Of a stretch of 64,000 bases of DNA, positions 20,645-38,299 are shown piece after piece; the stretch's first letter is position 1; every line of letters starts with the position of its first letter. A program made the translations under genes and the position numbers. This DNA is from a virus, in the IMG/VR virus record IMGVR_UViG_3300045988_060960, one strand, 5' to 3'. Under the pieces are notes generated by a model that was not told the origin of the DNA, ran no database searches, and saw only the letters and a list, made by a program, of their open reading frames with translations.

Positions 20645-21059
20645 TCTCACCAACCTCCGAATCTCTCTCAGGCAGGTAAATCTGGACCTGCGGCTGGACA
20701 GAAAGGGGAGTTCCAGTGATCTTGGCCTCCACAGCTTTCCGGTCGTTGAAGAAGTCGCCGCCGTACACCTTCAAGGCATAAATTATGGCGGTCGTATCTC
20801 CACTCGACACGCGCTCCATCAATTTGTTCTGGCACATAGCCACAACGGCAAGACGGCCATTCTTGATGGCTTTCTCCAAAGCAGCGTGTTCTTTTTGGAG
20901 GTTTTGCAAGGTTCGTCTGGTGATGTCGAACACTTTCGCGATCTCATCCATCGACTTACCCTGCATGGCGAGGGACTGCACAATGGCGAGGTTGTTTTCA
21001 ACCTCGCCAGATTCTATCCACTGCTCGAACAGGTCCTTTCTCTTTTTCTCATTAGCCAT
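20625..21059 (-). CDS. terS: Terminase small subunit (HTH); mirror copy
   Basis: Exact mirror of 36424..36858(+); identical 144-aa ORF. Confidence 0.7.
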   Translation of the reverse strand: MANEKKRKDLFEQWIESGEVENNLAIVQSLAMQGKSMDEIAKVFDITRRTLQNLQKEHAALEKAIKNGRLAVVAMCQNKLMERVSSGDTTAIIYALKVYGGDFFNDRKAVEAKITGTPLSVQPQVQIYLPERDSEVGENGKKKD

Positions 21060-22446
21060 ACCTCTCCGCTACCTTTTCGATTAGGGCAGTCATAAGACCT
21101 ACGTGCTTGTTGTGCTTGAAGCCGCCGGGGTACTCGATGTTCAGCTCCTTTTCCAGATAAGTCTCATAGACTTCGTCGGGAAGCTGCTTGGGCTTCATGC
21201 AGGCGCAGTAGATATACCCAGCATTGCAGGCCAGAACGCCGACCTCATCGAAATAGTTTTCGAGGAGCGCAACATAGCTCTCACGGGTGTGGAACTTCTG
21301 CTTAAACACGATGCCGTTGGTGACGCCAAGCGTGTAGTTCTTGTCATCAAGATACCACAGGCAGTCACCCGCTCCGGCGGACAGCTTGGTTTTGTCGTAT
21401 GCCTTCTCAACATACGCAAGGTTTCTGGTGCAGGTAATCAGAACGCCGCTGGCTTTCAGAACGGCATTACAGGCGGTGAGAACCGCCTTCTCGAACTCAT
21501 CGTCCACGACAGAGTTGATTACGGCTTCCAGAACGCAGTAATCGAACAATCCGTCTGTGCGGACGTGCCGCTCGGCGCTCAGAATGTTGGCGATGATGCC
21601 CTTCATGTCCAGCTTGTTCGCGCCCTTCACCATAAGGGACGGCTCATACGCATGAATGTCGTAGCCCTTGGATTTCAGCAGCTTCACATAGGCCATGCGC
21701 CCCGCCCCGATGTCGATGATACTGTCCGACCGCTGCAAGCGTGGAATCAGGTACTTCTCATACAGGACAGAAGAATTGGACTGCCGGCCATCCGTACTCA
21801 GGCGCTTGGGCTGCGCAAGGAACTGGTGGTAGGTCTGAACACCGAGATTGTCGAAGTTGTACTTGCCGTACTCGACGCCCATACATTCGAGGAACTCGGC
21901 AACATCCTCGTTTTGGATGGCGTAGCACAGAACGCCGTAGCCCAGCTTCTTGGAGCAGTAGGCATACTCGGAGTTGAGGATGACATTGCCATCCCCATCC
22001 GTAACAACACTGCCCCACTCGCCGTAGCGGGACATCAGCTTGGTGATCTCCGAGCACACGAGAACATTCTGCGGCTCGCTCTCGATCTTGATTTTGTCCG
22101 AGGGGCAATAGTGGTAGCCGCCCACCGTGAACTCCTCGATGCGAACCGTGGTTTTGCTGGTCTCAATCGAGTTGTGCATCAGGTTGAACAGAATCTCGTC
22201 CTGAAGATTGGGGCTTTTGATTCTGATACAAGGCAGGTACTCCAAGCCGATGGCAGTGGCCGCCTTCTTTCTCTGGTGGCCGGCGGTGATGACATTGTTG
22301 GTGGAGTTGACAATCAGGGGCTTAACCATGCCAAACCGACGGATGCTGTGCTGAAGGGCTTCCAGCGCCTCTGGCGTGATGGAGCGGGGGTTGTACTCTG
22401 ATCCGGTTACTTCGTCGATCGGAACCTTCTCCACGAAATCAATCAC
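21052..22446 (-). CDS. ParB-like N-terminal domain fused to class I SAM-dependent methyltransferase; mirror copy
   Basis: Exact mirror of 35037..36431(+). Confidence 0.75.
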   Translation of the reverse strand: MIDFVEKVPIDEVTGSEYNPRSITPEALEALQHSIRRFGMVKPLIVNSTNNVITAGHQRKKAATAIGLEYLPCIRIKSPNLQDEILFNLMHNSIETSKTTVRIEEFTVGGYHYCPSDKIKIESEPQNVLVCSEITKLMSRYGEWGSVVTDGDGNVILNSEYAYCSKKLGYGVLCYAIQNEDVAEFLECMGVEYGKYNFDNLGVQTYHQFLAQPKRLSTDGRQSNSSVLYEKYLIPRLQRSDSIIDIGAGRMAYVKLLKSKGYDIHAYEPSLMVKGANKLDMKGIIANILSAERHVRTDGLFDYCVLEAVINSVVDDEFEKAVLTACNAVLKASGVLITCTRNLAYVEKAYDKTKLSAGAGDCLWYLDDKNYTLGVTNGIVFKQKFHTRESYVALLENYFDEVGVLACNAGYIYCACMKPKQLPDEVYETYLEKELNIEYPGGFKHNKHVGLMTALIEKVAERYG

Positions 22447-23296
22447 GGTTTTCAACCCCCTTCAGAAGATAATTCGCAAAGCTCTCCGCCAGAATTGCGC
22501 CAGAGTCGATGTACTCCTTGTACTTCTCGTTCAGCCGGTCCATCTCCACCTGGGAGATGAAGAACGACACATCGCCGAACCGGAACTGACAGAACGGAAG
22601 AGCTGCTTTGGATTCCTTTTTCTGAGGCTCGTCATCGGCTTCGGGGGCCTCATAGGACGCTGCGTTTTCGGCTGCGGGAACGGAAGCGGCGGGCACATCA
22701 GGCTGGGACGCCAGCGTGGGATAGGAAACCTCCGGCGTCGGGGCCGTATCAACTTCATCATACCCGCCCGCAACTGCATCATTTTCTGCGTTGATGATGG
22801 AATTGCTGTCAACGGTGTGGACGGTGGGCTTCTTGGCCTTGGGCTTGTCGTTTACGCCCATGAAGTTGAAAGCCGGAATCTTGATCTCAGCCTGCTCCGG
22901 CTCGATGTCAAACACCTCGGTGCTCAGCTCGAAGCGATCCAACAGCAGCTGGTTCTTGTCAAGCGTGAGGTCAACGAGGGACAGTTCTTCTTTCAGCTTC
23001 TCAAAGTCCCAGTCGCTGTACTCGCTGGTTTTGTTGTCAACCAGTCGGAACAGATTGATCTGCTCCTCAGACAGCTCATCTGCGACGATGCAGGGAACAG
23101 TCTGGATTCCCATTTCACGGCAGGCCCGCACACGGGTGTGACCGCACACGATTGTGTAATTCATGTCGATAACAACCGGGAACAAGAAGCCGAACCGCTC
23201 GATGCTGTATTTCACCTTCTCTACGGCAAGGTCGTTGTTTCGCGGGTTGTTCTCATATTCCCGCAGACGGGATACGGAAACTTCTCTGATGTTCAT
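22439..23296 (-). CDS. ParB-like N-terminal domain protein 2; mirror copy
   Basis: Exact mirror of 34187..35044(+); identical 285-aa ORF. Confidence 0.75.
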   Translation of the reverse strand: MNIREVSVSRLREYENNPRNNDLAVEKVKYSIERFGFLFPVVIDMNYTIVCGHTRVRACREMGIQTVPCIVADELSEEQINLFRLVDNKTSEYSDWDFEKLKEELSLVDLTLDKNQLLLDRFELSTEVFDIEPEQAEIKIPAFNFMGVNDKPKAKKPTVHTVDSNSIINAENDAVAGGYDEVDTAPTPEVSYPTLASQPDVPAASVPAAENAASYEAPEADDEPQKKESKAALPFCQFRFGDVSFFISQVEMDRLNEKYKEYIDSGAILAESFANYLLKGVENRD

Positions 23297-23820
23297 TCTG
23301 CATTACCTCCCGTCAGATACAGGACAAAACCAAGGTAGGTCTTGTTCTTTTCGATATACGCGTCGTATACGGCCTTCAGGCGGGCGTATTCTTCTTCGGA
23401 CAGCGGAAGTTCTGTGCTGCCGAAAATGAGGCATTTGTGCTCAGTGAAGAACTTTCTGTCCCTGTTCGGCGTGAAGAAGGTGGTCTTGAAATCCATGCCG
23501 ATGCCGCTCAGCTCTTTGTGCAGCTTACCGACATCCCACGTGGAATACTCGTGGCTCTTGTTGTCGATGATCCGGGCCAACTTGGCATCTTCCTCAGACA
23601 TTTCCTGAACAATGCAGGGAACCTCGGTCATTCCAAGCCGTTTCGCGGCCTTCAATCTGGTGTGGCCGGAGATGATGACATTATTCGCGTCGATAGTGAT
23701 AGGGTTGAGGAATCCGAACTCGCGGATGCTTTCTGCAACCTTCGCGACACCGCCATCATTCCGGCGGGCATTTCCCTCGTATTCAACGAGTTCATCTACC
23801 CGCTTGTAAACAATTTCCAT
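23293..23820 (-). CDS. ParB-like N-terminal domain protein 1; mirror copy
   Basis: Exact mirror of 33663..34190(+); identical 175-aa ORF. Confidence 0.75.
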   Translation of the reverse strand: MEIVYKRVDELVEYEGNARRNDGGVAKVAESIREFGFLNPITIDANNVIISGHTRLKAAKRLGMTEVPCIVQEMSEEDAKLARIIDNKSHEYSTWDVGKLHKELSGIGMDFKTTFFTPNRDRKFFTEHKCLIFGSTELPLSEEEYARLKAVYDAYIEKNKTYLGFVLYLTGGNAE

Positions 23821-23846
23821 GTCGTGTCCTCCTTGTGTGTGAGCAT

Positions 23847-23880
23847 AAAAAATGGGAGCCTTTCAGAACGGAAGGCTCCC
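23847..23880 (-). terminator. Rho-independent terminator; mirror copy
   Basis: Exact mirror of 33603..33636(+). Confidence 0.7.
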
Positions 23881-23905
23881 AAATTTATCAGGTATTCAGT
23901 TTCCG

Positions 23906-24700
23906 TTAAAACAGGCCCCACTCAGCGAACTTTTCAAAACCGCCGCAGTTCTTGATAAACTCTCTGGCGATCTCAACGATTTCGCTGTAAGGCTTCCCGT
24001 CAACCTCGTCGTCGCCGATGGCGCAGAACAGCTTGACCGGCTTGCCGGTATGCTGCGCTTTGAGGAAAGCGTAAATATTGACGGACACATCCGCCTTGGA
24101 CAGGTCCTTTCCGTGCAGCCCGCCGCCCGTGACAGAATCAGCCATGTCAGAGCCGAGCTTTCGGTTAGTTGCTCCGGTATCAACATCCGTTCCGCCAGTC
24201 CAGTCGCCGAGCGGGTTGATCTCGGCGGTGGGGTACATCTTTTCGAGGTCTGCCTTCGCAGCGTTGCTCTGGCAGATAATGAGCTGATCTTCGCTCTTGA
24301 TATACTTGCCGTCAAACGGATAGGCTGCATAGATGTCGTGGGCAATCGCGGAGAGCGTCTTCTGCTCCTCCGTGAGCGGCATCCCTTTGAAGATACCGTT
24401 GTCGCCGCAGTGAACACCCCGCTCCTGATTTCCTGCGAGGTGTACATCCTGCGGGACGATAACGAGGTCGATCTGCACGAAGCCAGCGATGCGGCGGATC
24501 GCGTTGTGGATTGCAACGACAACTTCGGGCATAAGAAGCGGCGCCGAAGTCTCGACAACCGCATGGCATACGCCGTGGCCCACCAGAACCTCAACCGCGA
24601 TTTTGGGGTCGGGCTGTACCTGATAGGCAATGTCTACGATCGCGCCGGCAATCCGGTCTGCGATTTTGTCCGGGTGGGACGGATTTACTTTCTCAATCAT
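23906..24700 (-). CDS. Compact S-adenosylmethionine synthetase (MetK/MAT) homologue; mirror copy
   Basis: Exact mirror of 32783..33577(+); identical 264-aa ORF. Confidence 0.75.
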   Translation of the reverse strand: MIEKVNPSHPDKIADRIAGAIVDIAYQVQPDPKIAVEVLVGHGVCHAVVETSAPLLMPEVVVAIHNAIRRIAGFVQIDLVIVPQDVHLAGNQERGVHCGDNGIFKGMPLTEEQKTLSAIAHDIYAAYPFDGKYIKSEDQLIICQSNAAKADLEKMYPTAEINPLGDWTGGTDVDTGATNRKLGSDMADSVTGGGLHGKDLSKADVSVNIYAFLKAQHTGKPVKLFCAIGDDEVDGKPYSEIVEIAREFIKNCGGFEKFAEWGLF

Positions 24701-24704
24701 GGTC

Positions 24705-25541
24705 TCAGTTCCTTTGCTTTATTTTTTCGTTCCCGTTGAGAGGCGGCCCGAGGAGGTCGCAATCCACGTCAGGAGCGGGCTGAACATAGCCGTAGTGGTT
24801 TGCATAACAGTAGGCGCAGCCGTTGCTGCAAGTGCTGTACGCACCGATATCGACGCTCTCAACGCATTGGCAAAGGCCGCGCTGGTTGCGGTCCTTTGGC
24901 TTGTCAACGCCAAACATTTTTCCATCGACGCAGCAAGAATGGGGTATTCCCAAATCCTCTGCGCAGGAACTTAAAACGATCCCGTGCTGCCGTGCAATCT
25001 CGAAAAGTTCCTGCGCAAATTCGCGCTGCTGCTCCGGCGACAAGGGCTGTATTTTGAGCGGTCGGAGGTCTACGCTTCGGTAGGAATCGACGAAGCTCAT
25101 CACCGCCTTATACGTGTGGCCTTCGAGCGCCTCCGCGATTTTGGTAAAAGCCCTGACGTGATAATCCCAGGTGTATTTCTCATTCAGAAAGACGGGATCG
25201 TAACGCCAGATGGCCTTATCCGCCCCGATCTTTTTGAACGCCGGAATAACAATCTCGTTCTTATCGGGAATATTCCGCTCCACATCCCGGCCATACGGGG
25301 TGATGGTGTACTGGAAATAATATTTGAACGCATCCAGCTCGTGAATTCTATCGAGCATGGGGGCTGCGTTTTTGGTCCAAAAAACAAACCCATCTACTTT
25401 GTCGGGCGTGAGGGATACACGCCCGACTTGTAGAGGGTTGTATGGGTTTCTAAGGAGGACAAATCCCTTACCCACGCGGTTGTAAAACCACTCGGAGAAC
25501 AAAGCCGGGATGTCCGTCCGTCTACTTGCGCTCACGATCAT
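24705..25541 (-). CDS. DUF1848-type protein with C-terminal Cys cluster (putative Fe-S enzyme); mirror copy
   Basis: Exact mirror of 31942..32778(+). Confidence 0.6.
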   Translation of the reverse strand: MIVSASRRTDIPALFSEWFYNRVGKGFVLLRNPYNPLQVGRVSLTPDKVDGFVFWTKNAAPMLDRIHELDAFKYYFQYTITPYGRDVERNIPDKNEIVIPAFKKIGADKAIWRYDPVFLNEKYTWDYHVRAFTKIAEALEGHTYKAVMSFVDSYRSVDLRPLKIQPLSPEQQREFAQELFEIARQHGIVLSSCAEDLGIPHSCCVDGKMFGVDKPKDRNQRGLCQCVESVDIGAYSTCSNGCAYCYANHYGYVQPAPDVDCDLLGPPLNGNEKIKQRN

Positions 25542-28896: not shown

Positions 28897-28921
28897 ATTG
28901 CCCAAAAAAGGAGGACATGAG

Positions 28922-29539
28922 ATGAATATTGAGCAATTCAAGACCTGGCTTGACGAGGAGTTTGCAAAGCACCCGCTCCTCGCCAAGAGCAACCCTCGCT
29001 CGCTGAACGAGCTGTGCTACGTTCTGCGGCAAAGCGGGAAGGACTTCGCAGTCTGCTGGAACACCGACAACGGGTTCAGCTGCATCCCCTCCATTGTGGA
29101 TGCTTTCATCCCGTCTCGGGATCTGGCTCTGAAAGTTAAGCTCGCTGATTATGACCATGCCGACGAATCGGAGGATATCGAGGGCTGCCTTCGGGTAGAG
29201 ATTATCCGCGAGGTAATTCGCCCGGAGGTAAGTATCGAAAAGGCTCTCGAAGACTGGGGCCGTGAGCTTGCGGAAGTACACACTTTGCTTGGCTGCTGTG
29301 AGCTTCTGGCAGGGCTGGCAGAGGAAGCCGCTGAATTGTCTCAGGCCGCACTGAAGTTGCGCAGAACTATTGACAAGCGCAACCGCACCCCGGTCAGTAC
29401 GAGTGAGGCGTCCCGCGCTTTGAATGAGGAGTTCGCCGATGTGGTTGTGTGCGCGGCAGCTTTGGGATTGGACCAGGATGAAGTTGAGCGGTTCATCCGC
29501 GAAAAAGCTGCTCGGTGGAGCACCAGATTGGAGGGTTGA
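28922..29539 (+). CDS. MazG-like NTP pyrophosphohydrolase domain protein (205 aa)
   Basis: ATG 28922 follows the SD AAGGAGGA by 6 nt. The track ORF starts at TTG 28898, upstream of that SD, which is unlikely to be the true start. The C-terminal ~90 aa shows the all-alpha MazG pattern (LAEEAAELSQAALKLRR ... EEFADVVVCAAALGL). The N-terminal half is unrecognised. Confidence 0.5.
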   Translation: MNIEQFKTWLDEEFAKHPLLAKSNPRSLNELCYVLRQSGKDFAVCWNTDNGFSCIPSIVDAFIPSRDLALKVKLADYDHADESEDIEGCLRVEIIREVIRPEVSIEKALEDWGRELAEVHTLLGCCELLAGLAEEAAELSQAALKLRRTIDKRNRTPVSTSEASRALNEEFADVVVCAAALGLDQDEVERFIREKAARWSTRLEG

Positions 29540-31050: not shown

Positions 31051-31450
31051 GAATTTTATTCCGCAGCCCTTTGAGGGCGGCAATCCTCTCCCGAACTACG
31101 TGAGCAACGTCAGTGAATACACCCTCGTCGGTACTGTTCCGGGAGGCTACAAAGTTGTTTTAGCTCGGCTCACTGTGGGTGAATCGCTGAGCGCCGGAAA
31201 TCCGCTCGCTCACGCATTGTTCGAGAGCTTCACTGACCACGGCGACCGAGCCAAGGTTTCCAGAACTCGTGTGAGCGGGTATGACCGCGAGTTCATTGCG
31301 GTTCGCAGTGCGATGAGTGAGACCGGCGTGGAGTTCTTGCCGGCGCTTTCTTGCCCCTGCGAGGTGATCCTGACCGAGTTCGGGAACTGGATCATGGCGC
31401 AGAACCCTGAAATTCAAGGGGTCTCCGTCGTGTCACAAAGCTGTCATTGA
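31043..31450 (+). CDS. Hypothetical protein (135 aa)
   Basis: ATG with GGAGG SD; overlaps the previous stop by 8 nt; no family recognised. Confidence 0.65.
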   Translation: MIKNFIPQPFEGGNPLPNYVSNVSEYTLVGTVPGGYKVVLARLTVGESLSAGNPLAHALFESFTDHGDRAKVSRTRVSGYDREFIAVRSAMSETGVEFLPALSCPCEVILTEFGNWIMAQNPEIQGVSVVSQSCH

Positions 31451-31474
31451 CCTGTCATTTAAGGGGGTGCTATA

Positions 31475-31945
31475 ATGATACCATCGGATTTCATAGTTAC
31501 ACACGCGCCGATGCACCTGCGATTGGAGATTCGGAAGAAATGCAATTTCTTCTGGCTCCGAGACATTCGGGACGTTGACATCTCGCAATGCTGCGCCAAG
31601 TGTTTTATCGGCGAGAAGGACAACCGGGTCTACTACGGAACACTGCACAAATCGCAGGCCGTTGTTGACATCATGGTGGGGCAAAGCCCGCGAGCGAAAG
31701 CGTATTATCTTTGCGGGCTGAGCGATGGTTTTGTGTGGGAGTTGAATACGCACGTCGCGTTTGTGCCGGACAGCAATTCGGAAGTTCACATCGAAAACGA
31801 CAGAATCAAGCTCGACATCACAAACGCCCGCAGAATTCACTTCTGGGACTATGTTCCGAATCCGCCCGGAGTTTATACAAAGTCTCAGCGGACCTGCCGA
31901 AACTGGATATTTGCGAATTACTTGAAGGATGGGATGCCATTATGA
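31475..31945 (+). CDS. Hypothetical Cys-containing protein (156 aa)
   Basis: ATG with AAGGGGGTG SD; its stop overlaps the next start (ATGA); no family recognised. Confidence 0.65.
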   Translation: MIPSDFIVTHAPMHLRLEIRKKCNFFWLRDIRDVDISQCCAKCFIGEKDNRVYYGTLHKSQAVVDIMVGQSPRAKAYYLCGLSDGFVWELNTHVAFVPDSNSEVHIENDRIKLDITNARRIHFWDYVPNPPGVYTKSQRTCRNWIFANYLKDGMPL

Positions 31946-32778
31946 TCGTGAGCGCAAGTAGACGGACGGACATCCCGGCTTTGTTCTCCGAGTGGTTTTA
32001 CAACCGCGTGGGTAAGGGATTTGTCCTCCTTAGAAACCCATACAACCCTCTACAAGTCGGGCGTGTATCCCTCACGCCCGACAAAGTAGATGGGTTTGTT
32101 TTTTGGACCAAAAACGCAGCCCCCATGCTCGATAGAATTCACGAGCTGGATGCGTTCAAATATTATTTCCAGTACACCATCACCCCGTATGGCCGGGATG
32201 TGGAGCGGAATATTCCCGATAAGAACGAGATTGTTATTCCGGCGTTCAAAAAGATCGGGGCGGATAAGGCCATCTGGCGTTACGATCCCGTCTTTCTGAA
32301 TGAGAAATACACCTGGGATTATCACGTCAGGGCTTTTACCAAAATCGCGGAGGCGCTCGAAGGCCACACGTATAAGGCGGTGATGAGCTTCGTCGATTCC
32401 TACCGAAGCGTAGACCTCCGACCGCTCAAAATACAGCCCTTGTCGCCGGAGCAGCAGCGCGAATTTGCGCAGGAACTTTTCGAGATTGCACGGCAGCACG
32501 GGATCGTTTTAAGTTCCTGCGCAGAGGATTTGGGAATACCCCATTCTTGCTGCGTCGATGGAAAAATGTTTGGCGTTGACAAGCCAAAGGACCGCAACCA
32601 GCGCGGCCTTTGCCAATGCGTTGAGAGCGTCGATATCGGTGCGTACAGCACTTGCAGCAACGGCTGCGCCTACTGTTATGCAAACCACTACGGCTATGTT
32701 CAGCCCGCTCCTGACGTGGATTGCGACCTCCTCGGGCCGCCTCTCAACGGGAACGAAAAAATAAAGCAAAGGAACTGA
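31942..32778 (+). CDS. DUF1848-type protein, putative Fe-S enzyme (278 aa)
   Basis: The N-terminus MIVSASRRTDIPALFSEWFYNRV...FVFWTKN...YYFQYTITPYG matches my memory of the DUF1848 family. The C-terminal Cys cluster is CQCVESVDIGAYSTCSNGCAYCYAN. I prefer the start at ATG 31942 (ATGA overlap). The track start at 31711 would overlap the upstream gene by 235 nt. Confidence 0.6.
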   Translation: MIVSASRRTDIPALFSEWFYNRVGKGFVLLRNPYNPLQVGRVSLTPDKVDGFVFWTKNAAPMLDRIHELDAFKYYFQYTITPYGRDVERNIPDKNEIVIPAFKKIGADKAIWRYDPVFLNEKYTWDYHVRAFTKIAEALEGHTYKAVMSFVDSYRSVDLRPLKIQPLSPEQQREFAQELFEIARQHGIVLSSCAEDLGIPHSCCVDGKMFGVDKPKDRNQRGLCQCVESVDIGAYSTCSNGCAYCYANHYGYVQPAPDVDCDLLGPPLNGNEKIKQRN

Positions 32779-32782
32779 GACC

Positions 32783-33577
32783 ATGATTGAGAAAGTAAAT
32801 CCGTCCCACCCGGACAAAATCGCAGACCGGATTGCCGGCGCGATCGTAGACATTGCCTATCAGGTACAGCCCGACCCCAAAATCGCGGTTGAGGTTCTGG
32901 TGGGCCACGGCGTATGCCATGCGGTTGTCGAGACTTCGGCGCCGCTTCTTATGCCCGAAGTTGTCGTTGCAATCCACAACGCGATCCGCCGCATCGCTGG
33001 CTTCGTGCAGATCGACCTCGTTATCGTCCCGCAGGATGTACACCTCGCAGGAAATCAGGAGCGGGGTGTTCACTGCGGCGACAACGGTATCTTCAAAGGG
33101 ATGCCGCTCACGGAGGAGCAGAAGACGCTCTCCGCGATTGCCCACGACATCTATGCAGCCTATCCGTTTGACGGCAAGTATATCAAGAGCGAAGATCAGC
33201 TCATTATCTGCCAGAGCAACGCTGCGAAGGCAGACCTCGAAAAGATGTACCCCACCGCCGAGATCAACCCGCTCGGCGACTGGACTGGCGGAACGGATGT
33301 TGATACCGGAGCAACTAACCGAAAGCTCGGCTCTGACATGGCTGATTCTGTCACGGGCGGCGGGCTGCACGGAAAGGACCTGTCCAAGGCGGATGTGTCC
33401 GTCAATATTTACGCTTTCCTCAAAGCGCAGCATACCGGCAAGCCGGTCAAGCTGTTCTGCGCCATCGGCGACGACGAGGTTGACGGGAAGCCTTACAGCG
33501 AAATCGTTGAGATCGCCAGAGAGTTTATCAAGAACTGCGGCGGTTTTGAAAAGTTCGCTGAGTGGGGCCTGTTTTAA
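32783..33577 (+). CDS. Compact S-adenosylmethionine synthetase (MetK/MAT) homologue (264 aa)
   Basis: Four MAT signature blocks are present: SHPDKIADRIAGAIVD (cf. GHPDKICDQISD), CGDNGIFKG (cf. GDQGLMFGY), DTGATNRKLG (cf. GLTGRKII) and GGGLHGKDLSKADVS (cf. GGGAFSGKDPSKVDRS). It is about 120 aa shorter than bacterial MetK. Confidence 0.75.
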   Translation: MIEKVNPSHPDKIADRIAGAIVDIAYQVQPDPKIAVEVLVGHGVCHAVVETSAPLLMPEVVVAIHNAIRRIAGFVQIDLVIVPQDVHLAGNQERGVHCGDNGIFKGMPLTEEQKTLSAIAHDIYAAYPFDGKYIKSEDQLIICQSNAAKADLEKMYPTAEINPLGDWTGGTDVDTGATNRKLGSDMADSVTGGGLHGKDLSKADVSVNIYAFLKAQHTGKPVKLFCAIGDDEVDGKPYSEIVEIAREFIKNCGGFEKFAEWGLF

Positions 33578-33602
33578 CGGAAACTGAATACCTGATAAAT
33601 TT

Positions 33603-33636
33603 GGGAGCCTTCCGTTCTGAAAGGCTCCCATTTTTT
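33603..33636 (+). terminator. Rho-independent terminator
   Basis: Stem GGGAGCCTT / AAGGCTCCC with loop CCGTTCTGA, followed by ATTTTTTAT. It separates the early/accessory block from the ParB-terminase block. Confidence 0.7.
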
Positions 33637-33662
33637 ATGCTCACACACAAGGAGGACACGAC

Positions 33663-34190
33663 ATGGAAATTGTTTACAAGCGGGTAGATGAACTCGTTGA
33701 ATACGAGGGAAATGCCCGCCGGAATGATGGCGGTGTCGCGAAGGTTGCAGAAAGCATCCGCGAGTTCGGATTCCTCAACCCTATCACTATCGACGCGAAT
33801 AATGTCATCATCTCCGGCCACACCAGATTGAAGGCCGCGAAACGGCTTGGAATGACCGAGGTTCCCTGCATTGTTCAGGAAATGTCTGAGGAAGATGCCA
33901 AGTTGGCCCGGATCATCGACAACAAGAGCCACGAGTATTCCACGTGGGATGTCGGTAAGCTGCACAAAGAGCTGAGCGGCATCGGCATGGATTTCAAGAC
34001 CACCTTCTTCACGCCGAACAGGGACAGAAAGTTCTTCACTGAGCACAAATGCCTCATTTTCGGCAGCACAGAACTTCCGCTGTCCGAAGAAGAATACGCC
34101 CGCCTGAAGGCCGTATACGACGCGTATATCGAAAAGAACAAGACCTACCTTGGTTTTGTCCTGTATCTGACGGGAGGTAATGCAGAATGA
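33663..34190 (+). CDS. ParB-like N-terminal (ParB/Srx fold) domain protein 1 (175 aa)
   Basis: VDELVEYEGNARRND ... IREFGFLNPITIDANNVIISGHTRLKAAKRLGMTEVPC is the typical phage ParB-like nuclease-domain pattern. Strong SD. Confidence 0.75.
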   Translation: MEIVYKRVDELVEYEGNARRNDGGVAKVAESIREFGFLNPITIDANNVIISGHTRLKAAKRLGMTEVPCIVQEMSEEDAKLARIIDNKSHEYSTWDVGKLHKELSGIGMDFKTTFFTPNRDRKFFTEHKCLIFGSTELPLSEEEYARLKAVYDAYIEKNKTYLGFVLYLTGGNAE

Positions 34191-35044
34191 ACATCAGAGA
34201 AGTTTCCGTATCCCGTCTGCGGGAATATGAGAACAACCCGCGAAACAACGACCTTGCCGTAGAGAAGGTGAAATACAGCATCGAGCGGTTCGGCTTCTTG
34301 TTCCCGGTTGTTATCGACATGAATTACACAATCGTGTGCGGTCACACCCGTGTGCGGGCCTGCCGTGAAATGGGAATCCAGACTGTTCCCTGCATCGTCG
34401 CAGATGAGCTGTCTGAGGAGCAGATCAATCTGTTCCGACTGGTTGACAACAAAACCAGCGAGTACAGCGACTGGGACTTTGAGAAGCTGAAAGAAGAACT
34501 GTCCCTCGTTGACCTCACGCTTGACAAGAACCAGCTGCTGTTGGATCGCTTCGAGCTGAGCACCGAGGTGTTTGACATCGAGCCGGAGCAGGCTGAGATC
34601 AAGATTCCGGCTTTCAACTTCATGGGCGTAAACGACAAGCCCAAGGCCAAGAAGCCCACCGTCCACACCGTTGACAGCAATTCCATCATCAACGCAGAAA
34701 ATGATGCAGTTGCGGGCGGGTATGATGAAGTTGATACGGCCCCGACGCCGGAGGTTTCCTATCCCACGCTGGCGTCCCAGCCTGATGTGCCCGCCGCTTC
34801 CGTTCCCGCAGCCGAAAACGCAGCGTCCTATGAGGCCCCCGAAGCCGATGACGAGCCTCAGAAAAAGGAATCCAAAGCAGCTCTTCCGTTCTGTCAGTTC
34901 CGGTTCGGCGATGTGTCGTTCTTCATCTCCCAGGTGGAGATGGACCGGCTGAACGAGAAGTACAAGGAGTACATCGACTCTGGCGCAATTCTGGCGGAGA
35001 GCTTTGCGAATTATCTTCTGAAGGGGGTTGAAAACCGTGATTGA
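34187..35044 (+). CDS. ParB-like N-terminal domain protein 2 (285 aa)
   Basis: LREYENNPRNND ... IERFGFLFPVVIDMNYTIVCGHTRVRACREMGIQTVPC. The C-terminal half is acidic and low-complexity. The ATGA-type overlap with the upstream gene suggests translational coupling. Confidence 0.75.
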   Translation: MNIREVSVSRLREYENNPRNNDLAVEKVKYSIERFGFLFPVVIDMNYTIVCGHTRVRACREMGIQTVPCIVADELSEEQINLFRLVDNKTSEYSDWDFEKLKEELSLVDLTLDKNQLLLDRFELSTEVFDIEPEQAEIKIPAFNFMGVNDKPKAKKPTVHTVDSNSIINAENDAVAGGYDEVDTAPTPEVSYPTLASQPDVPAASVPAAENAASYEAPEADDEPQKKESKAALPFCQFRFGDVSFFISQVEMDRLNEKYKEYIDSGAILAESFANYLLKGVENRD

Positions 35045-36431
35045 TTTCGTGGAGAAGGTTCCGATCGACGAAGTAACCGGATCAGAGTACAACCCCCGCT
35101 CCATCACGCCAGAGGCGCTGGAAGCCCTTCAGCACAGCATCCGTCGGTTTGGCATGGTTAAGCCCCTGATTGTCAACTCCACCAACAATGTCATCACCGC
35201 CGGCCACCAGAGAAAGAAGGCGGCCACTGCCATCGGCTTGGAGTACCTGCCTTGTATCAGAATCAAAAGCCCCAATCTTCAGGACGAGATTCTGTTCAAC
35301 CTGATGCACAACTCGATTGAGACCAGCAAAACCACGGTTCGCATCGAGGAGTTCACGGTGGGCGGCTACCACTATTGCCCCTCGGACAAAATCAAGATCG
35401 AGAGCGAGCCGCAGAATGTTCTCGTGTGCTCGGAGATCACCAAGCTGATGTCCCGCTACGGCGAGTGGGGCAGTGTTGTTACGGATGGGGATGGCAATGT
35501 CATCCTCAACTCCGAGTATGCCTACTGCTCCAAGAAGCTGGGCTACGGCGTTCTGTGCTACGCCATCCAAAACGAGGATGTTGCCGAGTTCCTCGAATGT
35601 ATGGGCGTCGAGTACGGCAAGTACAACTTCGACAATCTCGGTGTTCAGACCTACCACCAGTTCCTTGCGCAGCCCAAGCGCCTGAGTACGGATGGCCGGC
35701 AGTCCAATTCTTCTGTCCTGTATGAGAAGTACCTGATTCCACGCTTGCAGCGGTCGGACAGTATCATCGACATCGGGGCGGGGCGCATGGCCTATGTGAA
35801 GCTGCTGAAATCCAAGGGCTACGACATTCATGCGTATGAGCCGTCCCTTATGGTGAAGGGCGCGAACAAGCTGGACATGAAGGGCATCATCGCCAACATT
35901 CTGAGCGCCGAGCGGCACGTCCGCACAGACGGATTGTTCGATTACTGCGTTCTGGAAGCCGTAATCAACTCTGTCGTGGACGATGAGTTCGAGAAGGCGG
36001 TTCTCACCGCCTGTAATGCCGTTCTGAAAGCCAGCGGCGTTCTGATTACCTGCACCAGAAACCTTGCGTATGTTGAGAAGGCATACGACAAAACCAAGCT
36101 GTCCGCCGGAGCGGGTGACTGCCTGTGGTATCTTGATGACAAGAACTACACGCTTGGCGTCACCAACGGCATCGTGTTTAAGCAGAAGTTCCACACCCGT
36201 GAGAGCTATGTTGCGCTCCTCGAAAACTATTTCGATGAGGTCGGCGTTCTGGCCTGCAATGCTGGGTATATCTACTGCGCCTGCATGAAGCCCAAGCAGC
36301 TTCCCGACGAAGTCTATGAGACTTATCTGGAAAAGGAGCTGAACATCGAGTACCCCGGCGGCTTCAAGCACAACAAGCACGTAGGTCTTATGACTGCCCT
36401 AATCGAAAAGGTAGCGGAGAGGTATGGCTAA
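35037..36431 (+). CDS. ParB-like N-terminal domain fused to class I SAM-dependent methyltransferase (~464 aa)
   Basis: The N-terminus is a third ParB-fold copy: SEYNPRSITPEALEALQHSIRRFGMVKPLIVNSTNNVITAGHQRKKAATAIGLEYLPC. The C-terminus has Rossmann MTase motif I, SIIDIGAGRMAYVKLLKSKGYDIHAYEP. No (D/N/S)PP(Y/F/W) tetrapeptide was seen. The start is uncertain: GTG 35037 is 9 nt after GGGGG, whereas the track uses TTG 35028. Confidence 0.75.
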   Translation: MIDFVEKVPIDEVTGSEYNPRSITPEALEALQHSIRRFGMVKPLIVNSTNNVITAGHQRKKAATAIGLEYLPCIRIKSPNLQDEILFNLMHNSIETSKTTVRIEEFTVGGYHYCPSDKIKIESEPQNVLVCSEITKLMSRYGEWGSVVTDGDGNVILNSEYAYCSKKLGYGVLCYAIQNEDVAEFLECMGVEYGKYNFDNLGVQTYHQFLAQPKRLSTDGRQSNSSVLYEKYLIPRLQRSDSIIDIGAGRMAYVKLLKSKGYDIHAYEPSLMVKGANKLDMKGIIANILSAERHVRTDGLFDYCVLEAVINSVVDDEFEKAVLTACNAVLKASGVLITCTRNLAYVEKAYDKTKLSAGAGDCLWYLDDKNYTLGVTNGIVFKQKFHTRESYVALLENYFDEVGVLACNAGYIYCACMKPKQLPDEVYETYLEKELNIEYPGGFKHNKHVGLMTALIEKVAERYG

Positions 36432-36858
36432 TGAGAAAAAGAGAAAGGACCTGTTCGAGCAGTGGATAGAATCTGGCGAGGTTGAAAACAACCTCGCCAT
36501 TGTGCAGTCCCTCGCCATGCAGGGTAAGTCGATGGATGAGATCGCGAAAGTGTTCGACATCACCAGACGAACCTTGCAAAACCTCCAAAAAGAACACGCT
36601 GCTTTGGAGAAAGCCATCAAGAATGGCCGTCTTGCCGTTGTGGCTATGTGCCAGAACAAATTGATGGAGCGCGTGTCGAGTGGAGATACGACCGCCATAA
36701 TTTATGCCTTGAAGGTGTACGGCGGCGACTTCTTCAACGACCGGAAAGCTGTGGAGGCCAAGATCACTGGAACTCCCCTTTCTGTCCAGCCGCAGGTCCA
36801 GATTTACCTGCCTGAGAGAGATTCGGAGGTTGGTGAGAATGGCAAAAAGAAAGACTGA
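36424..36858 (+). CDS. terS: Terminase small subunit (144 aa)
   Basis: Lies immediately upstream of and overlapping terL. It has a helix-turn-helix (KSMDEIAKVFDITRRTLQNLQKEH) followed by an oligomerisation-like helical region, which is the typical size and layout. Confidence 0.7.
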   Translation: MANEKKRKDLFEQWIESGEVENNLAIVQSLAMQGKSMDEIAKVFDITRRTLQNLQKEHAALEKAIKNGRLAVVAMCQNKLMERVSSGDTTAIIYALKVYGGDFFNDRKAVEAKITGTPLSVQPQVQIYLPERDSEVGENGKKKD

Positions 36859-38299
36859 TTCCGGCAGCTGCCCGGTAATTATTCGCCCGCAAAAGGGAAA
36901 GCAGGAAATGTTTCTGCGGTCCCCGGCTGACATTTGTATTTATGGCGGCGCAGCGGGCGGCGGAAAGACCTTTGCGCTGCTGCTTGAATGTCTGCGGCAC
37001 GTAGATAACAAACTGTTCGAGGCCGTAATATTCCGCCAGTCCAGACCGCAGATTATGAGCGCTGGCGGTCTGTACGCCACAAGCCAAGAGATCTATCCGT
37101 ATCTTGGTGCGACAAGCGTTTTGACGCCAAATGTGCAGTGGCGATTTCAGTCTGGCGCCAAAGTGACGTTCGCTCATATGTTCTACGAGAAAGAGAAATA
37201 CAACTGGCAGGGTTCTCAGATCCCGCTCCTGATGTTCGACGAACTCGTGCATTTCACGGAGAGCCAGTTTTTCTATATGTTCTCTCGTAACCGCTCAACC
37301 TGCGGCGTAAAGCCGCATATCCGCGCCACTTGCAACCCTGACGGCGAGAGCTGGGTGGCGAAGTTCATCGACTGGTGGATCGACCCGGAAACCGGGTACG
37401 CTGACGAAAGTAAATGCGGAAAGCTGCGATACTTCGTCCGGCGAAATAACATCATCCACTGGGCCGATACTCCGCAGGAACTGTACGAAACTTTCCGTCT
37501 GTATTCCCCGGAGGAGCAAGAAGACGTAAAGTCCGTATCCTTCATCAGCGCCAAGCTGACGGACAACGCCGCCATGATGAAACACGACCCTGGATACATG
37601 GGCGCTCTGAGAGCGATGTCTGAGTTCGACCAGGAACAGCTGCTGAACGGCAACTGGAAAATCCGAAGATCCGCCGGGCATTACTTCAAACGCTCCAAAG
37701 TCGGGCAGATGTTCCATGCGGTGCCTACCGACGTTGTTCGGTGGGTTCGTGCTTGGGACCTTGCCGCTACGGCGCCCGGTGAAGTGGACGAACTTGACGG
37801 ACTGCCGCAGGCTCTACGTAAAAACAGTCGTAGCGACAGCAGCGCTTATACAGCAGGCGTTCTTCTCGGAAAGAGAAAGAATGGCCGGATCTTTGTCGCG
37901 GACGTCATAAATGTCCGCGAAAACGGCGCTGATGTGCGACAACTCATTCTGAACACTGCCCAGAGCGACAATGCGCTCTACGGAAATGTGACTATCCGAC
38001 TTCCGCAGGACCCCGGACAAGCTGGAAAGGATCAGGCCCAGAGCTTTGTGAGAATGCTGGGAGGCTTCACTGTTACCACCTCGCTTGAAAGCGGAGACAA
38101 GGTAACAAGAGCAGAACCATTTTCCTCTCAGTGGCTTGCCGGAAATGTCGATGTAAAACTCGCAGAGTGGAATGACGAGTATTTCAGGCAGCTTGAAAAC
38201 TTCCCCGTAGGGAAACTGAAAGATATGGTGGATGCGTCAGCAAACGCCTACCTTGAACTGGAAGAAAAGCAGCCGTTCGGCTTCTCTTTCAATTTCTAA
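36839..38299 (+). CDS. terL: Terminase large subunit (486 aa)
   Basis: Walker A is YGGAAGGGKTFALL and Walker B-like is LLMFDELVHF. The C-terminal nuclease-like half contains WDLAAT...D. ATG 36839 is 9 nt after GGAGG; the track starts 9 nt earlier at TTG. Confidence 0.9.
   Translation: MAKRKTDSGSCPVIIRPQKGKQEMFLRSPADICIYGGAAGGGKTFALLLECLRHVDNKLFEAVIFRQSRPQIMSAGGLYATSQEIYPYLGATSVLTPNVQWRFQSGAKVTFAHMFYEKEKYNWQGSQIPLLMFDELVHFTESQFFYMFSRNRSTCGVKPHIRATCNPDGESWVAKFIDWWIDPETGYADESKCGKLRYFVRRNNIIHWADTPQELYETFRLYSPEEQEDVKSVSFISAKLTDNAAMMKHDPGYMGALRAMSEFDQEQLLNGNWKIRRSAGHYFKRSKVGQMFHAVPTDVVRWVRAWDLAATAPGEVDELDGLPQALRKNSRSDSSAYTAGVLLGKRKNGRIFVADVINVRENGADVRQLILNTAQSDNALYGNVTIRLPQDPGQAGKDQAQSFVRMLGGFTVTTSLESGDKVTRAEPFSSQWLAGNVDVKLAEWNDEYFRQLENFPVGKLKDMVDASANAYLELEEKQPFGFSFNF

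Follow-up and report, generated by a model that had tools for sequence, protein, structure and literature searches.

Do five consecutive phage genes, several of them likely to make or use S-adenosylmethionine (SAM), that lie just upstream of the terminase genes form one enzymatic system, or is their neighborhood a mosaic? The question is raised by positions 31942-36431 of IMG/VR record IMGVR_UViG_3300045988_060960, a viral stretch of 64,000 nucleotides that we refer to as the window. Five open reading frames (ORFs) follow one another there, encoding a DUF1848 protein, a compact SAM synthetase homologue (mini-MAT), two small ParB-fold proteins (ParB1 and ParB2) and a ParB domain fused to a methyltransferase (MTase), which we call ParB-MTase. 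A sequence-only reading of the window had located and named these five products and had proposed that they constitute a single SAM-centered modification system. The ORF list and the Pfam and PHROG matches bear out all five coordinates and all five names, and the analysis below is confined to the + strand copy of the region. The best-supported explanation, however, is that three units have come together at the early/late gene junction of a temperate gut prophage of Oscillospiraceae/Lachnospiraceae type, and that the five-gene "island" is a mosaic and not one system. For the core of this mosaic we put at about an even chance that nucleoside triphosphate (NTP)-gated ParB proteins load or activate the MTase on phage DNA just before packaging, in a counter-restriction or self-marking role.

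The mosaic nature of the locus is most evident from gene neighborhoods. The close relatives are prophages in Oscillospiraceae/Lachnospiraceae-type contigs, one of them adjoining an integrase and a tRNA-synthetase gene, with a head-tail module also present in the prophage context. In these relatives the block orf135-orf156-DUF1848-ParB1-ParB2-ParB-MTase-TerS-TerL is kept; DUF1848 is present throughout the lineage, and the five genes are collinear in 20 members. Mini-MAT occurs in 20 of the 32 lineage loci and is absent from the other 12. When the search for ParB-MTase relatives was made with an alignment of close homologues (A2), the same lineage alone was recovered from IMG/VR, and the addition of cultured-phage homologues (A3) reached distant members. 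None of 55 distant ParB-MTase loci has DUF1848 or mini-MAT (tblastn with 32 DUF1848 and 4 MAT queries), and none of 38 distant viral DUF1848 loci has a homologue of the middle/MTase part of the fusion protein. ParB_N genes of any kind are found in just two of those 38, where a long canonical ParB is encoded at a distance of some 3 kb. The sequence-only reading had said that chance adjacency would be implied if the genes did not co-occur in related phages, and for the five genes as one conserved system this is largely what we found: distant ParB-MTase loci have neither DUF1848 nor mini-MAT, distant DUF1848 loci have no middle/MTase homologue, 12 of the 32 lineage members do not carry mini-MAT, and a terminator separates DUF1848 and mini-MAT from the ParB genes.

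Two putative transcription units are indicated on the + strand, the first comprising orf156 (31475-31945, a conserved hypothetical protein), DUF1848 (31942-32778) and mini-MAT (32783-33577), and the second running from ParB1 onward to TerL. We draw this division because of a promoter before orf156, the terminator, the overlap of orf156 with DUF1848 and the overlaps from ParB1 to TerL. The candidate promoter (31447-31476) is sigma-70-like, with TTGACC, an 18 nt spacer and TG-TATAAT, and lies immediately 5' of orf156. It has 11 of 12 consensus matches and an extended -10 TG, but promoter-like sites in the region are not above chance (three found, against 5.4 expected), and as the start of the first unit it is suggestive only. 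The stop of orf156 overlaps the start of DUF1848 by 4 nt (ATGA). The intrinsic terminator (33602-33638) consists of a hairpin at 33602-33630 followed by a U-run, and it is real, as the sequence-only reading had supposed: its folding energy is -19 kcal/mol (z -4.5), and none of 200 shuffles was equally stable. A consensus terminator scan did not call this hairpin, the sole reason being its loop of 9 nt. The 85 nt gap that holds the terminator precedes ParB1, which has a GGAGG ribosome-binding site 5' of its start and is the first gene of one tightly overlapping late operon. In this operon ParB1 (33663-34190) and ParB2 (34187-35044) overlap by 4 nt, ParB2 and ParB-MTase (35037-36431) by 8 nt, ParB-MTase and TerS (36424-36858) by 8 nt, and TerS and TerL (36830-38299) by 29 nt. 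DUF1848 is the penultimate gene of the preceding unit here and the last gene in relatives that lack mini-MAT; in one such relative, L004 (loci compared with the window carry L numbers), a comparable hairpin lies directly 3' of DUF1848. Since mini-MAT is present in only 20 of the 32 loci, and since the hairpin directly follows DUF1848 where it is absent, mini-MAT is therefore a movable gene inserted after DUF1848, ahead of the terminator with which the upstream unit closes.

The longest ORF of the fusion protein begins at TTG 35028, but the real start is most likely GTG 35037, which is preceded by the ribosome-binding site GAAGGGGG and gives 464 amino acids, as in nearly all homologues. The protein, which matches phrog_5475, comprises a ParB_N domain (residues 1-100), a middle domain (about 104-195), a class I MTase (about 230-425) and then a conserved tail. 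In the predicted model (pLDDT 82.6), the ParB_N domain matches the CTP-bound ParB structure 7bnk with a root-mean-square deviation (rmsd) of 2.2 Å by Foldseek, and a Foldseek search against BFVD gave ParB_N matches and nothing further. PADLOC MTase_II and phrog_498 matches also cover the ParB_N part only. The middle domain was considered as a second, degenerate ParB fold; it has the same secondary-structure order, but hhalign gave an E value of 0.27, and the idea stays conjecture.

In the MTase, the motif IIDIGAGRMAY, which the sequence-only reading had quoted, is indeed present and begins at residue 246. The window MTase scores 23.8 bits against Methyltransf_23, just under the cut-off of 27. 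Across 35 diverse members of the family, ParB_N was found in 34 and Methyltransf_23 in 31 (best E 2e-13). In these members D245, G247 and G249 of SAM motif I are invariant, conservation is at least 90% for the acidic E268 of motif II and for N311, which falls at motif IV, and the ParB pocket residues N19, R21, G56, R59 and N92 are invariant family-wide. The middle and MTase region matches 316 clusters (50% identity) among 1.84 billion proteins; among the 150 matches listed, nearly all are 455-480 amino acids long, and the match begins at about residue 100-135. We found no Pfam match of the PF01555/PF02384 type and none to PF00145 in ParB-MTase. By these sequence criteria, the MTase is classed as a SAM methyltransferase of class I and Methyltransf_23 type and, by motif or by Pfam, not as an N6A/N4C or a C5 enzyme.

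Full-length homologues with 27-41% identity occur in Bacteroides phage BS-TP3, in Yersinia and Escherichia coli phages and in Brochothrix phage BtpYZU02, and 431 IMG/VR contigs carry ParB-MTase relatives. BS-TP3 has ParB, ParB-MTase, TerS and TerL with equally tight spacing. Of 46 distant loci that could be analyzed, at least 26 have a small ParB gene as the immediate upstream neighbor of ParB-MTase, and none has DUF1848 or mini-MAT. Homologues were found in 71 of 5426 complete E. coli genomes, in 75 of 76 places on plasmids of about 48 kb (e.g., NZ_CP048340.1, 18878-20874), and these pairs of small ParB and ParB-MTase are about 99.5% identical to each other. The replicons of about 48 kb are presumably phage-plasmids. 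In another E. coli phage locus, that of vB_EcoM-613R2 (L080), a second small ParB stands just 5' of the large terminase gene.

The domain layout itself has been described. A recent survey reported that ParB-fold fusions to N6_N4 MTase (PF01555) and to Methyltransf_23 (PF13489) are enriched in phages and prophages and that ParB-fold fusions to SAM methyltransferases bind ATP (PNAS 2025; Hocher, Le and colleagues; PMC12704722). The window protein, to judge by its domains, is a member of the phage-enriched "ParB-CTPase fold + Methyltransf_23" class of that survey, with the same order of ParB_N then Methyltransf_23 and with the P-motif arginine kept (GHQR). The window adds a conserved middle domain, stand-alone ParBs (one or two) and translational coupling to the terminase genes; the survey itself gives no function, substrate or gene context for these fusions.

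ParB1 (175 amino acids; ParB_N E 3.9e-9; phrog_620 E 6e-44) consists of a nucleotide-binding ParB/Srx-fold domain and a short C-terminal domain. ParB2 (285 amino acids, ParB_N) is its paralogue, 50% identical over 110 amino acids (E 3e-34), and their small C-terminal domains are weakly similar. Against ParB_N (PF02195; cut-off 26.3), ParB1, ParB2 and ParB-MTase score 36.9, 37.4 and 40.3 bits. The pocket motifs are of the regulator type, YNPR and GH(T/Q)R; they read YE(G/N)N(A/P)R and GHTR in the two small proteins, with GHQR in the fusion protein, and represent Q-to-N and E-to-H changes relative to the canonical QPR and GERR. No helix-turn-helix (HTH) family was found in any of the three ParB proteins in Pfam and NCBIfam scans, their TIGR00180 scores (40.6, 32.4 and 30.2) all fall below the cut-off of 58.45, and no ParA-type Pfam family lies within 10 kb of the module in relatives. 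The NCBIfam scan of the ParB proteins also returned SerK. As a separate observation, the linker of ParB2 (residues about 105-235; window 34500-34900) is some 120 amino acids of acidic, Pro/Ala-rich, low-complexity sequence, ParB2 ranges from 184 to 293 amino acids in relatives, and gene calling splits the L006 copy into two ORFs; evolution of the linker appears to be rapid.

A close parallel to the small ParBs comes from a subclass of phage thymine dioxygenases (5mYOX), which are inactive without a cognate ParB-like protein (NEB preprint, bioRxiv 10.1101/2025.08.14.668559). In the 5mYOX ParBs an unstructured linker connects the nucleotide-binding domain with the C-terminal one; these proteins have no HTH and carry changes of Q52 to N and of E93 to H or D (bioRxiv 10.1101/2025.08.14.668559). 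ParB1 and ParB2 share this domain order, the lack of an HTH and the same substitutions, and they too stand beside an enzyme of DNA-modification type. Unlike the 5mYOX case, the partner in the window is a SAM methyltransferase with a ParB domain of its own and not an iron- and 2-oxoglutarate-dependent (Fe/2OG) dioxygenase. In relatives, the genes called within 10 kb of the module include no family of the 5mYOX/Tet/JBP type.

Mini-MAT ties the window to a second described arrangement. At 264 amino acids, compared with 384 for E. coli MetK, it is shorter by some 120 residues, which in MetK form loops and peripheral elements. In Pfam, S-AdoMet_synt_N alone passes (41.2 bits, cut-off 33.1), and the central and C-terminal MetK domains were not detected; the score against the TIGR01034 equivalog is 47.1 bits against a cut-off of 309.4. 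The protein belongs to phrog_1569 ("unknown function", E 2e-66), and a PDB search returns MAT structures. We aligned it with an E. coli MetK reference sequence verified as identical to PDB 7ll3. Equivalents of the catalytic and ligand residues are kept in four phage mini-MATs, namely HPDK (His14, Asp16, Lys17), Glu42, Asp118, Asp238, Arg244, Lys245, Lys265, Lys269 and Asp271; the Lys165 region is deleted or rearranged, and its assignment is uncertain. As far as such residues can tell, mini-MAT is probably an active, minimized MAT. At least 437 IMG/VR contigs carry a relative. Outside the window lineage, a ParB_N gene comes directly next in 36 of the 46 mini-MAT loci that have a downstream gene, and 35 of these 36 encode a ParB-N6/N4 DNA methylase, the usual order being HNH-TerS-MAT-ParB::MTase. 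Annotated examples of MAT-ParB::MTase include NatCom_991, Gardnerella vB_Gva_AB1 and Streptococcus Javan191. A full-length MAT beside a ParB-fused methylase upstream of the terminase genes was annotated in Phi1207.3 in 2014, and the MAT was proposed to supply the methyl donor (PMC4260502).

These cassettes (Phi1207.3 orf29/orf32, Streptococcus Javan phages, Gardnerella vB_Gva_AB1 and gut NatCom phages, from Firmicutes and Actinobacteria) belong to the same mini-MAT family as the window protein, with identities of about 66-72% in protein and 67-71% in DNA matches, and they place the MAT directly 5' of the ParB-fused methyltransferase and beside the packaging genes. They differ in that the cassette methylase is a canonical N6/N4 enzyme in the order TerS-MAT-MTase, whereas that of the window is of Methyltransf_23 type and is preceded by two free ParBs. 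Moreover, the window MAT follows DUF1848 and lies before the terminator, unlike the cassette MATs. In the literature we found nothing on a phage MAT as an anti-defense factor. The fusion class, ParB-assisted modification of phage DNA and the phage cassette of MAT plus methylase are thus already described. The statement in the sequence-only reading that no described pathway matches was too strong, given Phi1207.3 (PMC4260502) and the ParB-Methyltransf_23 fusions (PMC12704722). Its SAM theme, on the other hand, is not accidental, as mini-MAT is recurrently tied to ParB-MTases and, as set out below, DUF1848 to class I MTases.

We suggest the following course of events, which we hold about as probable as its negation. 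The small ParBs would bind NTP and, in that state, would assemble with the ParB_N domain of the MTase on phage DNA. They would thereby load or activate the class I MTase, and replicated phage DNA would be methylated just before or during packaging. The methylation may protect phage DNA from host restriction-type defenses or mark it against them. Mini-MAT would make SAM locally for a late-infection burst of SAM-dependent reactions, and DUF1848 probably acts on nucleic acid in a step linked to methylation, either an extra modification or repair, without being an obligatory core partner. We regard both as lineage-specific additions from the same SAM-dependent functional guild. DNA is proposed as the substrate because of the 5mYOX precedent, because of DndB and DpdB, which are ParB-like components of DNA-modification systems, and because of positional equivalence with the ParB-N6/N4 methylases. 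Elsewhere it is a ParB-N6/N4 methylase that follows mini-MAT, and the class I enzyme of the window therefore occupies a DNA-methylase slot.

Several points weigh against this proposal. What weakens it most is the catalytic domain, which resembles a small-molecule MTase and has no DNA-methylase motif. Its Foldseek neighbors in the PDB are glycine N-methyltransferase (GNMT), glycine sarcosine N-methyltransferase (GSMT), the NDP-sugar C3-methyltransferases TcaB9, MtmC and KijD1 and generic Methyltransf_11/23/25 structures, with a probability of 1.0 for GNMT, GSMT and TcaB9, and no DNA methyltransferase is found among its top 50 PDB structure matches. There is no [DNS]PP[YFWH] and no ENV motif in the MTase, and the sole "PC" lies in the ParB domain, in agreement with what the sequence-only reading had remarked. 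In none of the three ParB proteins could we identify a DNA-binding domain, and the middle domain (104-195) has no significant resemblance to a ParB fold. A role in plasmid maintenance is possible, given that all but one of the E. coli places are on plasmids. The constant presence of DUF1848 in the lineage and the affinity of its family for MTases leave room for a functional link with the core. What the data show are the gene identities, architecture, overlaps, terminator, co-occurrence counts and retained SAM-binding and MAT catalytic motifs; NTP gating, a DNA substrate, the anti-restriction role, the Fe-S or radical chemistry and MAT activity are inferred.

The same structural neighbors, and the same lack of DNA methyltransferase motifs, would be expected if the MTase had a target other than DNA. 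The ParBs would then be NTP switches or accessories of partition or packaging, and the MTase would act on a protein (terminase, capsid or a host factor), on RNA or on a small molecule or nucleotide, perhaps as an anti-defense measure. The tight coupling of the MTase gene to TerS, the E. coli homologues on replicons of phage-plasmid size and the VirB4/VirB3 genes in some relatives are all compatible with such a role. So is the fact that the ParB fold also serves in SerK, Srx and other kinases and ATPases (PMC12704722), SerK being among the NCBIfam matches here. However, the 10 kb around the module in relatives yielded no ParA and no HTH or centromere-binding domain, the module also occurs in integrated prophages beside an integrase, and in other mini-MAT phages the slot is held by genuine ParB-DNA methylases. 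The documented partners of ParB-like proteins, in the 5mYOX, Dnd and Dpd systems, are moreover DNA-modifying enzymes. We consider a target other than DNA unlikely, but a serious rival all the same.

DUF1848 poses a question of its own. The protein (278 amino acids) matches PF08902 over all 262 profile positions (1-262; E 8.5e-88, 295 bits, cut-off 30.5), and the Cys-rich motif CQCVESVDIGAYSTCSNGCAYCYAN quoted in the sequence-only reading is present, beginning at residue 224. Seven Cys are invariant in an alignment of 32 sequences down to 50% identity (C193, C204, C224, C226, C238, C242 and C245). The last three, C238-x3-C242-x2-C245, have the CX3CX2C spacing of radical SAM enzymes, with a Tyr before the last Cys, and are located C-terminally. 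The AlphaFold2 model is a beta/alpha barrel (pLDDT 92.9, pTM 0.91), for which the best low-rmsd Foldseek matches are Cfr, Elp3, PFL-AE, NifB and GDGT-MAS, at probabilities of 0.94-1.0, with TMq of 0.32-0.40 and rmsd of 3.9-5.4 Å. Generic TIM barrels are returned as well, including xylose-isomerase-like and AP-endonuclease-type ones. Like Cfr/RlmN, Elp3, PFL-AE and NifB, DUF1848 has CX3CX2C and an aromatic residue before the last Cys, and its predicted barrel may be of the same partial beta/alpha type, but in radical SAM enzymes the motif follows strand beta-1, where DUF1848 has an invariant SxSRRTDxP.

The native sequence has no match to Radical_SAM (PF04055) in a Pfam scan. We considered a circularly permuted radical SAM protein, and with the Cys segment moved to the N-terminus PF04055 gave only E 0.3 over 15 residues. 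Searches of the PDB by sequence and by profile returned spurious matches only (Cas12i2, adiponectin and PTPN21) and no radical SAM match, and DUF1848 matched no PHROG or NCBIfam family. We therefore keep DUF1848 outside the radical SAM superfamily, because even the permuted sequence fails the Radical_SAM profile, and treat it as a presumed [4Fe-4S], radical-SAM-like Fe-S enzyme on the strength of its Cys pattern and predicted fold.

Little has been written on this family; our search of the literature found nothing beyond a note that a UG25 fusion of a methylase and a reverse transcriptase (RT) is partnered with DUF1848 (Mestre et al. 2022, PMC9226505). PADLOC matches the window protein to RTasDUF1848 (E 1e-39), which it lists solely as an accessory of defense-associated reverse transcriptases (DRT). 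Among 29 distant viral DUF1848 loci whose neighbors were examined, 12 have a Cys-rich class I MTase-like gene of about 300 amino acids immediately upstream, and one further locus has an MTase related to the N-terminus of the UG35 RT. One cellular contig, too, has DUF1848 paired with a Cys-rich MTase (hmmsearch E 5e-103), and the neighbors of the pair there are a Dam methylase and a DUF87 ATPase. DUF1848 thus recurrently partners class I MTases in mobile elements and defense-like islands, and it is a candidate non-canonical radical SAM family.

In this two-gene cassette a Cys-rich N-terminus joined to a class I MTase core (PADLOC "C3a159 methyl transferase") overlaps or abuts DUF1848. The cassette is seen in L182 (4082-5936); the MTase is gene -1 in L035, L036, L039, L044, L045, L047, L049, L050, L056, L059 and L061 and gene -3 in L048. 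Among the genes that flank it are those for serine or tyrosine recombinases, a Dam methylase, a DUF87 ATPase and an HsdS-like protein. The MTase of L050 (4569-5999) is extended at its N-terminus by a segment that resembles the RnlA toxin domain, at a score just under threshold (26 bits, cut-off 27; E 1.1e-5). We regard the cassette, which is not a PADLOC v2 system, as a candidate defense or modification pair. In L186 (2990-8104) DUF1848 lies between a 665-amino-acid RE_NgoFVII-like protein and a C5 DNA methylase, a restriction-modification-like context.

The window DUF1848 belongs to the same family as in the UG25 and Cys-rich pairs and has all seven invariant Cys and an MTase nearby. In those pairs, however, the MTase is adjacent and of a different subfamily, whereas the window DUF1848 adjoins orf156 and mini-MAT, and its nearest MTase lies past the terminator, three genes downstream, or two where mini-MAT is absent. 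We considered ParB-MTase as a displaced cognate partner and dropped the idea, as a profile comparison with hhalign showed no specific relationship to the Cys-rich MTases. The product of orf156, which is 74-99% identical among lineage relatives and has no Pfam, PHROG or PADLOC match and a non-significant NCBIfam match, may be a lineage-specific partner of DUF1848 in the position that the Cys-rich MTase takes elsewhere.

Several of these contexts invite a reading in which DUF1848 is not a modification enzyme. It could be an Fe-S enzyme that clears away damage from aberrant or collateral methylation by promiscuous MTases, or a TIM-barrel nuclease that forms a defense or exclusion pair with an MTase. 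The copy between the RE_NgoFVII-like protein and a C5 methylase, the copy beside Dam and DUF87, the recombinases and HsdS-like gene around viral copies, the PADLOC listing as a DRT accessory only and the xylose-isomerase-like and AP-endonuclease-type barrels are all in keeping with this. All of the context evidence fits a modification role equally well, though, CX3CX2C with an aromatic residue before the last Cys is a radical SAM signature, and no nuclease motif was identified. We find a repair or restriction role quite unlikely.

The integrated pathway of the sequence-only reading, in which mini-MAT feeds SAM to a radical SAM DUF1848 and to ParB-MTase for a non-canonical modification of phage DNA or nucleotides, fares less well and is, in our estimate, very unlikely. 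All three enzymes do make or use SAM, or plausibly so, and the five genes are collinear in the 20 lineage members that have them. Radical SAM enzymes reportedly act in phage thymidine hypermodification. DUF1848 is also paired with MTases in three independent settings, i.e., viral (the 12 of 29 loci and the one UG35-like case), cellular and UG25 (PMC9226505). Nevertheless, the co-occurrence is confined to one close lineage, with 0/55 and 0/38 distant loci, 12 of 32 lineage members do without mini-MAT, and the terminator splits DUF1848 and MAT from the ParB genes. The MTase has no specific kinship to the MTases that partner DUF1848, and radical SAM membership is not established by sequence (PF04055 E 0.3). 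An integrated five-gene pathway is therefore conceivable only as an innovation of this lineage. It is likewise very unlikely, we believe, that an MTase loaded by ParB1 and ParB2 represents a new DNA MTase class without DPPY, PC or ENV motifs which, with a permuted radical-SAM-like DUF1848 and its own SAM synthetase, installs a non-canonical base (C-methylated or further processed) before packaging. We also rejected a partition system (ParABS) for the three ParBs, given the lack of ParA within 10 kb in relatives and of a detected HTH, the sub-cut-off TIGR00180 scores and the relatives that are integrated prophages.

The remaining features of the window concern its layout. It is a perfect inverted repeat, with arms (1-28741 and 28742-57482) that are 100% complementary and have no spacer. 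A second, identical copy of the five-gene region, which the sequence-only reading had reported at 21052-25541, is indeed there: the opposite arm of the 28.7 kb palindrome carries 31942-36431 in exact reverse complement on the - strand. The palindrome axis (28741/28742, between …ACACGGGGTA and TACCCCGTGT…) lies in a stretch of small early genes, with DUF1848 some 3.2 kb further downstream, and in relatives unrelated, unique sequence continues at the matching point. The 28,741-nt palindrome looks like an assembly or amplification fold-back or a read-through of a hairpin end, rather than a biological duplication of the module. An ORF at 28898-29539, which precedes the module by 2.4 kb, weakly resembles MazG-like nucleoside triphosphate pyrophosphohydrolases in PHROG (E about 1.6e-7); these are nucleotide-pool enzymes. 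At the other end, TerS matches phrog_309 ("terminase small subunit"), homologues of TerL in close relatives match Pfam Terminase_6N/6C, and portal, protease and capsid genes lie 3' of the terminase genes. In some relatives (L007, 1-5000; L009, 1-3400), T2SSE-like, VirB3 and VirB4/TrbE genes stand 2-7 kb upstream of the orf135-to-terminase block; these relatives with type IV secretion genes have a different portal and head module, which suggests mosaicism with a conjugative element.

The ParB_N-middle-Methyltransf_23 family emerges from this analysis as a compact and almost exclusively phage-borne one, encoded immediately 5' of the terminase genes by phages whose hosts span at least three bacterial phyla. 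Should its MTase prove to methylate DNA, the family would add a new catalytic type to the DNA methyltransferases and, after the 5mYOX dioxygenases, a second example of ParB-gated DNA modification. If it does not, the family would point to an unrecognized methylation step coupled to packaging. The pairing of a minimized SAM synthetase with late methylases in hundreds of phages suggests a virus that secures its own supply of cofactor, and the phage-plasmid homologues in 71 complete E. coli genomes make the core experimentally tractable.

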